In this document: piece by piece, positions 4,521 to 7,729 of the stretch
Position numbering within the stretch: the stretch's first letter is position 1
Layout of the letters: the number at the start of each line of letters is the position of its first letter
IMG/VR virus record: IMGVR_UViG_2740892231_000002
Span: 1 to 10,286 of that record
DNA from: a virus
Taxonomy: Duplodnaviria; Heunggongvirae; Uroviricota; Caudoviricetes
Strand: one strand, 5' to 3'
Length of the DNA stretch: 10,286 nt
Made by a program: the position numbers and the translations under genes
Notes under the pieces: model-generated
Told to the model about the DNA's origin: nothing
The model's input: only the letters and a program-made list of their open reading frames with translations
The model's database searches: none

Positions 4521-5282
4521 ATGGAAACCGTTTTTGACGCACTGAAAGCAATGGGAAAAGCCAGCTCTGTTGGACTGGCTGAGCGGCTTGATATCAGTCG
4601 TGAAGAGGTTCTCAACGAACTGTGGGAACTCAAAAGAAATGGCGTTGTTGATAAAGCGGGTCACATCTGGTTTCTGGCTGGCGAAGGTGAATCCGGGGTA
4701 ACCGAAGAGCAGCCAGAACAGTCTGAAGTACCGGATGTGCTGACCGGGGAGGTCGAACAAAAAGTTACCGCAGACATGATGATTGAGTTTATCGGTCAGG
4801 AGGGGGCTAAAACGTGTGAGGAACTGGCGGATAAGTTCGGTGTTAGCATTCGCAAGGTTGCTTCCACGTTGGCGGTGGTAACCGCAACGGGACGCCTGGC
4901 ACGCGTAAATCAGAACGGTAAATTTCGTTACTGCATGCCGGGCGATAATTTACCAGCAGAGCCGAAAGCCGTGCCGGTAACGGAAAATGATGGTAAGGCC
5001 TTTCCTCAGCCAGCAGGTGTTGCGTTACCAGTACAGGAATCTGCAACACAGGAAGATATTAAAACAGAAACAGTGGCGGACATTGTGCAGTCGTTGCCAT
5101 CGTTTACCGAAACGCAAGCAGATGAGCTGATTTTTCTGTCCCTGTGCAGGGCAAACCTGGCGCTGCGCAGGGCGAAAAGTGATGTTCAGAAGTGGGAGCG
5201 AGTCTGTGCCGCGCTGCGGGAACTGAACAAACACAGGGATATTCTCCGGGATATTACCGCCACCAGAGAGCTGCTGCGGTGA
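4521..5282 (+). CDS. DUF1627-like phage protein with two winged-helix-like modules, 253 aa
   Basis: Six-frame ORF with AGGAGG 6 nt upstream. The N-terminus [10 protein letters not shown]... matches my recollection of DUF1627 prophage proteins. Two similar modules are visible (about residues 2-55 and 85-140). Confidence 0.65.
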
Positions 5283-5596
5283 GTGGCTGGAAGAAGTGGC
5301 GCTGGGCGGAAATTATGATACTCCGGCAGTGTGCGGGAACGATGACAGTCGAAAGCATCGGCAGTCTGATTGGCCGTAGTGGGGCTGCCGTCAGGACGAA
5401 AGCGCGGGAACTGGGTATCTGCATGATGTTACGGGGTGATTATCACCAGTCAGCCAAATGTTCACAGCGTGATATTGAGCTGGCGCGGCAACTGCATCAG
5501 CGTGGCGTACCCCGACGGGAAATTGCCGAAAAGTTTGGGATGAAGTTGGGCGCAGTGAATAACTACGTTTATTTCGACAGGAGGGTTCAGGCGTGA
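5279..5596 (+). CDS. Hypothetical small phage protein with HTH-like segments
   Basis: Open frame 5192..5596. The likely start is the GTG at 5279 overlapping the upstream stop (GTGA), or the ATG at 5312 or 5342. HTH-like stretches [23 protein letters not shown] and [20 protein letters not shown]. The start is uncertain. Confidence 0.45.
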
Positions 5597-5898
5597 GGGT
5601 GAGAATTTATATCGCCGGTCCGATGACGGGATATGAAAATTTCAACCGTGAGGCGTTTCACAGGGCGGAAGAAGCACTGAAACGGGAAGGGCATACCGTT
5701 TTAAACCCGGCAGTACTTCCGGACGGACTGACACAGCCACACTACATGGATATTTGCATGGCGATGATACGCTGCGTGGATGCGATTTACATGCTGAAAG
5801 GCTGGCAGCGGTCGGCAGGCGCTAAGGCAGAACTGGCACTGGCGGAGAAACTGGGACATGCGGTTATTTTCCAGGAGGCAACCAGTGAGAAAAATTAA
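5593..5898 (+). CDS. DUF4406 / nucleoside 2-deoxyribosyltransferase-like protein, about 100 aa
   Basis: N-terminal IYIAGPMTG motif, typical of the nucleoside deoxyribosyltransferase-like fold. AGGAGG lies 7 nt upstream of the GTG at 5593 (an alternative GTG is at 5599). Confidence 0.7.
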   Translation: MRVRIYIAGPMTGYENFNREAFHRAEEALKREGHTVLNPAVLPDGLTQPHYMDICMAMIRCVDAIYMLKGWQRSAGAKAELALAEKLGHAVIFQEATSEKN

Positions 5899-6448
5899 TT
5901 ATCAGACGCTACGTGAGATAGCAAAACTGGCAACCCAGGGCGAATGGGTCGCATTCATTTCGCCGGGCACTGATACATATGCGGTGCATACGCCGGGGGA
6001 TGAACGTTGCGGAGACATTATCAAATGGCCTGGCTTTGATGACCAGAAAAATGCAGAGAACAACGCAGAATTTATTGCAGCTTTCAACCCTGAAGTAGTA
6101 CAGGCACTGCTGGATGAACGGGAAGCCCAAAGCAAACGTATTGCAGAGCTGGAAGCTAATCTTGTGGCGCTGGCGGCGGAGAATGCACTTGCTCGTAAAG
6201 CAGTTCAGGCATTCTGCGATGTTGTTGGCGACAACACCGAGGTTATCTGCGAGGAGGTTGGGAGAGATGGCGTTCTGGTTATTTTGGAGGCCATGAAGGC
6301 AACAGGAAATATGCCTGCCACCGATGCTTTCCTGGCTGAAGTACGAGCGCAGGGCGTGGAGATGTTTGCGGAGTGTGCATACACACTTGAACATCATGAT
6401 CACGCAGTAGCCTTCGCCGCTGAGCTTCGCAAAGGAGGCAACCAGTGA
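5885..6448 (+). CDS. Ead/Ea22-like family protein (paralog 1)
   Basis: GTG start at 5885 with AGGAGG 6 nt upstream. Motifs INYQTLREIAKLATQGEW and NAEFIAAFNPEVVQALLDEREAQ, followed by a coiled-coil-like segment, are shared with the next gene. Confidence 0.7.
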   Translation: MRKINYQTLREIAKLATQGEWVAFISPGTDTYAVHTPGDERCGDIIKWPGFDDQKNAENNAEFIAAFNPEVVQALLDEREAQSKRIAELEANLVALAAENALARKAVQAFCDVVGDNTEVICEEVGRDGVLVILEAMKATGNMPATDAFLAEVRAQGVEMFAECAYTLEHHDHAVAFAAELRKGGNQ

Positions 6449-7122
6449 GCAAGATTGACTATCAGGCATTGCGTGCTAAGGCAGAAAAAGCAACGTGTGG
6501 CGAGTGGTCGCTCGAATATGGAGAGGGACGATTTGATGGTGATGATGCGCTAATTCATCGTGAAGTTGCTGGATATATTCCCATTTGCAGAATTGAAGGA
6601 GCGCATCCTGAAAGCGGTTTCGATGAAGATTTCCAAATGGAACAGCAGGCCAATGCTGAATTCATCGCCGCAGCCAATCCAGCTACCGTGCTGGCGCTGC
6701 TGGATGAACGGGAAAGAAACCAGCAATACATCAAACGCCGCGACCAGGAGAACGAGGATATTGCGCTAACGGTAGGGAAGCTGCGTGTTGAGCTGGAAGC
6801 AGCAGAGAAGCGGATTGCTGAGCTGCAGGCGCGGGACGTTAAGCCAGTTGCATGGATGAGGAATGCTAACGTCACATCATTCATGTCGAGGTTCACAACC
6901 GATGAGAAATATGCAGTTGAGCAATGGGGTGATGATGCAGTTGCCCTCTATCCACTCCCTGTAGCTTTCATCCCTGCCTGCTTTACAGACGAAAGAAATC
7001 TCATGCATATCAACGAGCGCGGGCGAGAAACGTCACTTATCTGGAGTAAGCAGAACTCAGACAGCGGCGACATTAAACTTTTTCGTATCGCCGCCGCAGC
7101 CGGTAAAGGAGAGGAATCATGA
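6445..7122 (+). CDS. Ead/Ea22-like family protein (paralog 2)
   Basis: GTG start at 6445 overlapping the upstream stop (GTGA), with AGGAGG 6 nt upstream. Motifs IDYQALRAKAEKATCGEW and NAEFIAAANPATVLALLDERE. Confidence 0.7.
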   Translation: MSKIDYQALRAKAEKATCGEWSLEYGEGRFDGDDALIHREVAGYIPICRIEGAHPESGFDEDFQMEQQANAEFIAAANPATVLALLDERERNQQYIKRRDQENEDIALTVGKLRVELEAAEKRIAELQARDVKPVAWMRNANVTSFMSRFTTDEKYAVEQWGDDAVALYPLPVAFIPACFTDERNLMHINERGRETSLIWSKQNSDSGDIKLFRIAAAAGKGEES

Positions 7123-7649
7123 GCACTATCACAAGAGAATGGCTGCAGCAGGCTATCAACGATTATGAAAGCGTTCGTGATGAGCTTCCTTTCGGGCTTG
7201 ATGATTACCAGGGGAATATCCTGGCTTCCCTGCGTATCGCACTGGCATCTCTGGAAGCAGAGCCGGTGGCGTGGAAGGTAACATTCACGCAAATTGACCG
7301 TGAATATAACACGTTCACTGGTATGTATTCTGACAAAGCAGAAGTCGAACGGTGGGTGCGGCTGCATAAAGCATGTAATTTTCGGGCAGATATAACACCG
7401 CTTTATACCGCCAAGCCAGTGCCGGTAACTCCGGATGGTTGGATAAGCTGTAGTGAGCGAATGCCGGATACCAAAACAGCCGTTCTTGTTGCCAGGGAGT
7501 TTGACAGGAAAGGTGACTGGCGAATGAAATGGGCGACTTACATCCCGGGGCATCCTGACGCTAATGATGGGTGGGTAGTACCTGGTGCGTCGTGGATACC
7601 ATCACACTGGATGCCGCTACCAGAACCGCCGCAGGAGGTGCGCCAATGA
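7119..7649 (+). CDS. DUF551 domain phage protein, 176 aa
   Basis: ATG at 7119 overlaps the upstream stop (ATGA). The C-terminal WISCSERMPD...WMPLPEPP segment is typical of DUF551. Confidence 0.75.
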   Translation: MSTITREWLQQAINDYESVRDELPFGLDDYQGNILASLRIALASLEAEPVAWKVTFTQIDREYNTFTGMYSDKAEVERWVRLHKACNFRADITPLYTAKPVPVTPDGWISCSERMPDTKTAVLVAREFDRKGDWRMKWATYIPGHPDANDGWVVPGASWIPSHWMPLPEPPQEVRQ

Positions 7650-7729
7650 GCTGGCCTGAGGCCTTCTCAAATGTTGGTATTGCAATGGCGGTGGCGCTGG
7701 TGGTGTATTCGATTTGCCGCTGGGGATAA
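7646..7729 (+). CDS. Candidate 27-aa hydrophobic micro-protein (MSWPEAFSNVGIAMAVALVVYSICRWG)
   Basis: ATG at 7646 overlaps the DUF551 stop (ATGA) and has AGGAGG 7 nt upstream. The translation has one predicted hydrophobic helix and stops at TAA 7727-7729, just before the terminator. It is below the ORF-track length cutoff. Confidence 0.4.
   Translation: MSWPEAFSNVGIAMAVALVVYSICRWG

Follow-up and report, generated by a model that had tools for sequence, protein, structure and literature searches.

A 17-nt gene junction repeated in the accessory block of an Stx2b prophage: a likely translational connector and boundary for cassette exchange in enteric phages

The DNA considered here, hereafter the window, is the whole of a 10,286-nucleotide stretch from a virus record (IMG/VR record IMGVR_UViG_2740892231_000002, positions 1 to 10,286), in which a block of overlapping accessory genes (5279-7729) carries the same 17-nt junction, AGGAGGCAACCAGTGAG, in front of two Ea22-like genes. 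On comparative grounds, we consider it likely that this block is a variable accessory stretch, and that the 17-mer, which we call the linker, both couples the translation of adjoining genes and offers a short stretch of homology, a boundary sequence, at which cassettes are exchanged. By its match to the chromosome of Escherichia coli strain 2012EL-2448 (NZ_CP027586.1), the window represents a lambdoid prophage of E. coli encoding Shiga toxin (Stx) 2b: positions 3725-10286 are 99.85% identical to the prophage in that chromosome, and the interval 5279-7729 is 100% identical. As judged from gene order, the block is in the rightward early operon, downstream of the replication genes, a place equivalent to that occupied by the nin region of lambda.

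A preliminary description of the window, made from the sequence alone, had read the block as a cassette-like mosaic. Comparison of related prophages supports that reading, since the cassettes found between identical junctions vary. An invariant block, which would have spoken against it, is ruled out: at least 80% of the 2451-nt block is present in one place in 2 of 5426 complete E. coli genomes, and pieces of it are present in 3501. None of 50,697 phage records contains the whole block, and 525 contain pieces.

The linker and the genes it joins

The identical junctions reported before the two Ea22-like genes, at 5873-5889 and 6433-6449, were both confirmed. The sequence occurs nowhere else in the window, even when 2 mismatches are allowed, and 0 of 200 shuffles gave any match. 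The features of the block and its borders are as follows.

4521..5282, plus strand: DUF1627 gene (Pfam PF07789, E=7e-94; RefSeq-annotated), whose TGA stop overlaps the next GTG start
5279..5596, plus strand: gene for a small helix-turn-helix (HTH) DNA-binding protein, 105 aa if the start is GTG 5279 (phrog_323 'transcriptional regulator', E=1.6e-27, aligned from residue 5)
5593..5898, plus strand: DUF4406 gene, nucleoside 2-deoxyribosyltransferase-like (Pfam PF14359, E=8.5e-37; phrog_355), with a GTGA overlap at 5593-5596
5873..5889, plus strand: linker copy 1, seen in the sequence as an AGGAGG Shine-Dalgarno (SD) sequence, a CAACCA spacer, a GTG start and AG
5885..6448, plus strand: Ea22-like paralog 1, 187 aa (Pfam PF13935, 94.9 bits; RefSeq-annotated; exact protein on at least 1000 contigs)
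6433..6449, plus strand: linker copy 2, seen in the sequence with GTGA at 6445-6448
6445..7122, plus strand: Ea22-like paralog 2, 225 aa (Pfam PF13935, 115.8 bits; C-terminal phrog_19550)
7106..7122, plus strand: second linker type, AAAGGAGAGGAATCATGA, encoding the ...GKGEES tail and stop of paralog 2 together with the SD and the ATG of the DUF551 gene
7119..7649, plus strand: DUF551 gene, 176 aa (Pfam PF04448, E=2e-20, residues 107-172)
7646..7729, plus strand: open reading frame (ORF) of 27 codons that closes the block and encodes a small hydrophobic peptide, MSWPEAFSNVGIAMAVALVVYSICRWG; kept in 77 related loci
7740..7773, no strand assigned: GC-rich hairpin (inverted repeat; RNA fold -17.9 kcal/mol, z=-3.9)

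The stop-to-start overlaps described earlier (GTGA at 5279-5282 and 6445-6448, ATGA at 7119-7122 and 7646-7649) coincide with the ends and starts of the ORFs. The GTG at 5885 does lie inside the upstream DUF4406 gene, but the distance of 12 nt given for it was only approximate: the overlap is 14 nt including the stop codon, as the gene ends at 5898. A further overlap, the GTGA at 5593-5596 between the HTH and DUF4406 genes, was absent from the earlier list and is the sixth of six consecutive overlapping junctions (5279, 5593, 5885, 6445, 7119 and 7646). An SD of the GGAG type is found 4-7 nt before the starts at 5593, 5885, 6445, 7119 and 7646; the start at 5279 has only a weak, AGAG-like match. 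GTG is the start codon in four of the six cases. The RefSeq annotation of the identical sequence uses the same starts at 5593, 5885, 6445 and 7119 and begins the HTH gene at ATG 5315. Because this codon is CTG in most homologues, whereas the GTGAG at 5279 is conserved, the overlapping GTG 5279 is, by comparison of homologues, the better start call.

At junction 2, a 7-nt match to the anti-SD sequence (AAGGAGG) is followed by a 6-nt spacer and a GTG that overlaps the TGA stop. Linker copy 2 supplies the codons with which paralog 1 ends (...AELRKGGNQ), while the last codons of the DUF4406 gene (...QEATSEKN) are linker copy 1 read in a second frame. The DNA repeat between the two copies has the 17-mer as its exact start and extends over 75 nt (72% identity); upstream of the 17-mer, nothing is common to the two copies. 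A second shared island of 64 nt (6061-6124 and 6651-6714), which encodes a NAEFIAA...LLDERE motif, ends in an identical 18-mer, CTGCTGGATGAACGGGAA.

No dyad symmetry was found in or around the linker, and RNA folding around both copies gave energies like those of shuffled sequences (z=-0.2 and -1.2). An explanation based on RNA structure, in which a 5-bp hairpin masks the SD at junction 2, was dropped because the hairpin is not conserved in other upstream contexts. Database scans of the block gave no match to PADLOC defence profiles for its five proteins larger than the 27-aa peptide, no significant family in NCBIfam and, over the whole window, no RNA family in Rfam; the upstream DUF1627 protein had only weak, HTH-type matches in PADLOC.

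Variation around the linker in enteric phages

Homology around the DUF4406 gene was followed in 80 viral contigs whose DUF4406 protein is at least 91% identical to that of the window, a sample chosen without selecting on the linker. In 68 of these 80 loci, the alignment across DUF4406 stops at window positions 5878-5926, and more than 35 different gene arrangements follow the gene. Nearly all of the loci carry the linker, or a variant of it differing by 1-3 nt, at the 3' end of DUF4406. A similar break is seen at the other copy, with 32 of the 40 best phage matches starting at query positions 1135-1176, ~20 nt or less from linker 2. As a separate observation, about 20 of the DUF4406-anchored loci, plus loci L130, L132, L150 and L076, have the linker followed by a 16-codon remnant of an Ea22 N-terminus (MSEINYQELRQVKE and a stop codon), by genes for small acidic proteins, and by a second linker ~1054 bp on. 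An older record of an Stx1 phage annotates rearranged 'arrangement' segments in the equivalent region.

The exact 17-mer is present in at least 120 viral contigs. Among the matches listed, 114 unique contexts fall into 32 upstream and 35 downstream flank classes that occur in 83 combinations, and a single upstream class pairs with up to 13 downstream partners. Flanks taken from outside the conserved island give 32 four-gamete quartets. The linker sits at a gene junction in every context examined. The genes that follow it are mostly Ea22-like, but they also include unrelated families of 74, 84, 181, 214 and 335 aa that have only 'MS' in common, and where two linker copies enclose a cassette, its length is 241-1405 bp and its content varies, being Ea22-like or unrelated.

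In 154 distinct upstream contexts, the linker is read as ...RKGGNQ, with the TGA overlapping the GTG, in 89 and as ...(Q/K)EATSE... in 63; one context is an in-frame fusion (RRQPVS). The ...(Q/K)EATSE... frame, which is the one used by the DUF4406 gene of the window, stops 4-34 nt further on. The proteins encoded upstream form at least 10 groups with unrelated C-terminal regions. Given the use of two upstream reading frames and the unrelated upstream C-termini, the linker is, on this comparative evidence, conserved as nucleic acid and not as peptide. In occasional cases, the upstream gene reads through the linker in frame and is fused to the Ea22-like gene (...RRQ(P/T)VSKIDYQ...).

A scan of bacterial genomes, one per species (596 Gb), returned 65 matches to the 17-mer versus ~69 expected by chance by our own estimate; two of the 65 were in Escherichia. 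By these sequence counts, enrichment of the 17-mer is specific to enteric phages. An 80-nt island around linker 2 is found in 397 phage records (Escherichia, Stx-converting, Salmonella P22-like, Shigella and P1-like phages) and in 1126 of 5426 complete E. coli genomes, at up to 7 places per genome and with 210 places on plasmids. In phage HK620, the junction occurs with 1 mismatch between hkaH and the Ea22-like hkaG, in the leftward operon. Apart from these, Actinobacillus phage vB_Apl-pPE4 (PP818812.1) has a match to the island at 10802-10864 (87.5% over 64 nt); its recorded host is a member of the Pasteurellaceae, whereas all other matches are enteric. The linker sequence appeared in no paper of the literature searched.

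The genes behind the linker are themselves mosaic. That both are Ea22-like, as had been proposed, is borne out by their scores against Pfam PF13935 Ead_Ea22 (94.9 and 115.8 bits, gathering cut-off 27) and by the RefSeq/NCBI name 'ead/Ea22-like family protein'. So, too, is the proposal that they are alike at the N-terminus and differ at the C-terminus: identity is 41% over ~99 N-terminal residues, and the C-terminal parts have no significant similarity. In PHROG, each paralog partially matches 16-20 families. Paralog 2 has an N-terminal region and coiled coil common to thousands of relatives and a C-terminal domain (6823-7119) of a rarer family, its C-terminal 99 aa matching phrog_19550 (E=5e-28). 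RefSeq flags the gene as a pseudogene 'missing C-terminus' and annotates 6445-6822 only; the ORF itself is unbroken, and many contigs have an annotated protein identical to it over all 225 aa. Given these full-length counterparts and the phrog_19550 match of the C-terminus, the flag is, as the comparison of sequences indicates, an artefact that arises when a mosaic gene is measured against a reference.

When paralog 2 was compared with protein clusters, at least 8000 matched, with lengths of 173-303 aa among the matches listed. In an alignment of 30 relatives, the sequence is near-invariant up to LEAAEKRIAEL and then continues into a dozen unrelated C-termini; the C-terminal domain of paralog 2 recurs in three proteins of this alignment with different N-terminal variable regions. 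Five N-terminal variable classes and 19 C-terminal classes occurred in at least 20 combinations, a count that is a lower bound, as the regular expression for the central Ea22 motif caught 37 of 172 ORFs. Otherwise unrelated Ea22 C-termini often end in ...IKGE before the stop, and the codons for this ending (AAAGGAGA...) again provide an SD for the next gene. This second recurring connector, AAAGGAGAG...ATGA, gives unrelated Ea22 C-terminal domains either an ...IKGE or a ...GKGEES ending and is represented in the window at 7106-7122. Variation continues in the DUF551 gene, whose N-terminal half is variable and whose C-terminal DUF551 domain is conserved, with BLAST alignment ends clustering at 7230-7270, 7420-7460 and 7600-7640.

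By analogy with the Ea22 proteins of lambda and Stx phages, the Ea22-like proteins are most likely oligomeric coiled-coil scaffolds with interchangeable C-terminal domains. An AlphaFold2 model of paralog 2, built on the 30-sequence alignment, had a mean predicted local distance difference test score (pLDDT) of 51.6 and a predicted template modelling score (pTM) of 0.28, and only the central helix was confident (residues 79-129, pLDDT 76-86). A sequence search of the Protein Data Bank (PDB) gave no relative for either paralog.

Proposed function and competing explanations

We propose that the block would be transcribed with the rightward early operon, with transcription ending at the hairpin at ~7740-7773. 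Its genes are joined by short connectors, in which the last codons of the upstream gene hold the SD and the next start overlaps or just precedes the upstream stop, and AGGAGGCAACCAGTGAG is the commonest connector of this type. From the anatomy of the junction, ribosomes ending the upstream gene would meet a strong SD and, after 6 nt of spacer, a GTG that overlaps the stop, and a gene landing behind the linker would be translated regardless of the gene upstream. The comparative data suggest, in addition, that the linker, together with flanks that are conserved in part (about -19 to +60), would offer ~30-80 bp of homology to phage or host recombinases. Crossovers between co-resident lambdoid phages or prophages would then exchange, duplicate, or delete whole cassettes while a working junction was kept; the direct linker copies, 560 bp apart, predict unequal exchange that adds or removes whole cassettes with the junction still working. 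The islands within the Ea22-like genes (the N-terminal codons, the NAEFIAA...LLDERE motif, and the coiled coil) would allow a like shuffling of the variable parts. We infer both the coupling and the crossover at the linker, and cassette exchange by general or phage-encoded homologous recombination best explains the observed combinations. Previous work has shown that recombination dependent on Red or RecA can proceed with ~30 bp of homology and that Red tolerates divergence (PMC2327257), and that homology is the main driver of mosaicism among temperate phages and prophages (PMC3945230).

Several points weigh against this proposal. The perfectly conserved core is 17-26 nt, below the usual minimum of ~30 bp, so that the case for homology depends on the flanks, which are conserved in part and occur mainly where the downstream gene is Ea22-like. 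Surviving breakpoints might also gather at gene borders through selection acting on recombinants, and BLAST alignment ends place breakpoints only within ~20 nt. The exact-17-mer contexts were selected for the 17-mer itself, and many of the viral contigs derive from the prophages of E. coli isolates that had been sequenced and do not count as independent samples. At the protein level, given the poor model of paralog 2, the statement about the Ea22-like proteins rests on their published relatives.

It is conceivable that the linker is kept only as a very good translation-initiation signal, with illegitimate recombination occurring at random and selection keeping the joints that fall at gene borders (the Hendrix/Juhala model). 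We regard this as unlikely, though it is the main rival: most phage mosaic boundaries are without recognisable conserved sequences (PMC3029335), ~70% of mosaics are without a trace of flanking homology (PMC3945230), an SD together with an overlapping start is present at every junction of the block, including those that differ in sequence (for example 5580-5596 and 7632-7649), and the truncated 16-codon Ea22 remnants in some loci imply breaks other than clean exchange at the linker. However, translation constrains the AGGAGG and the start codon, not the CAACCA spacer or the trailing AG, and yet the full 17-mer is identical over dozens of unrelated flank combinations. Random joints followed by selection would yield heterogeneous junctions, whereas the junctions of DUF4406 are nearly uniform, and reuse of the linker in two upstream frames fits the spread of one DNA segment, not convergence. 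We give very little credence to conservation of the 17-mer for the peptides it encodes, either an upstream C-terminal ...RKGGNQ or a downstream N-terminal MS...; the former is the ending in 89 of 154 contexts, often after a similar ...AAQL motif, and most downstream proteins begin MSKIDYQALRE, but the same nucleotides are read in another frame in 63 contexts and as RRQPVS in one, the upstream C-termini are unrelated among the groups, and some downstream families share just the 'MS'.

The preliminary description had itself named a simple, recent local tandem duplication of one Ea22-like gene as a possible source of the repeated junction. The two genes are indeed adjacent, in the same orientation, with the 17-mer and two conserved islands in common. 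Nevertheless, this has almost no chance of being correct, and in its simple, recent form is ruled out by the 41% protein identity of the N-termini and by the absence of anything shared upstream of the 17-mer. The C-terminal parts lack significant similarity, the DNA islands are 72% identical, each paralog has far closer relatives in other phages (77-100% identical) than its neighbour, and in other phages the same 17-mer precedes unrelated genes. That a dedicated integron- or homing-like cassette system, whether site-specific or driven by a nuclease, has the linker as its target is a slim chance at best. Identical short sequences do bound the cassettes, and HNH endonuclease genes are occasionally among such cassettes in other genomes; however, the linker lacks dyad symmetry and significant RNA or DNA structure, Pfam and PHROG scans gave no recombinase or nuclease gene in the block, there was no Rfam or PADLOC match, and homology fades gradually into the flanks, with no fixed end site.

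A bolder form of the connector proposal strikes us as distinctly improbable. It holds that the linker and its relatives are a maintained 'standard connector' of enteric temperate phages, which accepts either upstream frame, guarantees expression of the downstream gene, and is preferred by phage single-strand-annealing recombinases. If true, the accessory region would be an array of cassettes driven by recombination and extending over both the leftward and the rightward operon, and even to P1-like plasmid prophages.

Relation to known systems and neighbouring features

The phenomenon is already known in kind, as both boundary sequences and Ea22 mosaicism have been published. Short conserved boundary sequences were proposed as recombination foci in lambdoid phages by Clark et al. 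2001 (HK620; J Mol Biol 311:657), and the linker idea goes back to Susskind & Botstein 1978, both as cited in PMC3029335 and PMC2327257. Like those sequences, the 17-mer is short, is conserved between phages at the borders of exchangeable modules, and has non-homologous flanks in combinations that require recombination. Its likeness to the seven HK620 boundary sequences (Clark et al. 2001) is one of kind.

Published Ea22 proteins have an N-terminal segment and a coiled coil with the Ead_Ea22 signature, unrelated C-terminal domains, mosaic blocks, and an occasional DUF551 fusion, and they are tetrameric (PMC10834534); Ea22 of lambda and of Stx phages is reported to have a pro-lysogenic effect (Dydecka et al. 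2020, PMC7093339). The window paralogs resemble lambda Ea22 and the Stx-phage variants V1-V3 in the signature over the N-terminal segment and coiled coil and in their unrelated C-termini. They differ in position: the genes studied in lambda and Stx phages lie in the exo-xis region of the leftward operon, whereas those of the window are two tandem paralogs that follow the replication genes. The pro-lysogenic effect and the tetramer belong to the proteins studied in lambda and Stx phages. The 'ea' region of P22-like phages (eaA-eaI, ead; in HK620, hkaE-hkaH) likewise combines Ea22-like, DUF551, and small unknown proteins in tightly overlapped genes, with 90-97% DNA identity to parts of the block; in contrast, it has another genome position and operon, and its gene content differs in almost every phage. 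Integron cassettes are also promoterless and varied, with recurring short boundary sequences and an upstream promoter, but they come with an integrase, attC-like imperfect inverted repeats, and a folded single-strand structure, all of which are absent here.

No new kind of system is revealed. What is added is the scale of the combinations, the finding that the linker is used in two frames and occurs in plasmid prophages as well as in both early operons, and corrections to annotation. The linker provides a countable example for the old dispute over whether mosaicism in temperate phages arises by recombination at short shared linkers or by random breaks and selection. There are also consequences for annotation: mosaic Ea22-like genes can be mis-flagged as pseudogenes, start codons can be misplaced, and a conserved 27-codon gene is missed.

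The 27-codon ORF preserves its length, its hydrophobic core, and its SICRWG end across 77 related loci, in 34 nucleotide versions. It is absent from the annotation of the RefSeq record, yet it has been deposited elsewhere as a hypothetical protein. As judged from this conservation, the ORF very probably encodes a real small membrane peptide. Alignment starts cluster at ~7640 and alignment ends at ~7730, so that the ORF itself behaves as an exchangeable module.

The hairpin at 7740-7773 separates the accessory block from a convergent ParD/ParE-type toxin-antitoxin pair (7852-8477, minus strand). From its sequence, it is likely a bidirectional terminator, with the U-tract clearer on the minus strand. 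A simple terminator scan missed it; the hairpin was found by a repeat search and folding. Long antisense ORFs opposite the Ea22-like and DUF551 genes (6558-6896 and 6951-7553, both on the minus strand) have partial matches to PHROG families of unknown function, phrog_13760 and phrog_23547. Both families probably originated from antisense ORFs that had been annotated in earlier phage records, NC_004913.3 among them.

In NZ_CP027586.1, the order of genes is a cro-like regulator, YdaT, a DnaT-like replication protein, replication protein P, DUF1627, a DNA-binding protein, DUF4406, two ead/Ea22-like genes, and DUF551, followed by the convergent ParDE-type pair, DUF968, RusA, an antiterminator, tRNAs, and stx2b. 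Positions 162-1943 of the window have no match in this otherwise near-identical prophage, pointing to a different immunity/repressor segment, itself a sign of mosaicism. The region 2441-4033 contains three runs of 10 N (2915-2924, 3246-3255, and 3714-3723). The flanks of these runs map to overlapping stretches of the reference prophage, and 2926-3245 and 3256-3713 re-cover parts already present. From this mapping, the region looks like a scaffolding or assembly artefact, which repeats parts of the DnaT-like replication gene and disrupts its reading frame. The second toxin-antitoxin pair of the window, of the RelB/RelE type, is located at 265-744 on the minus strand.

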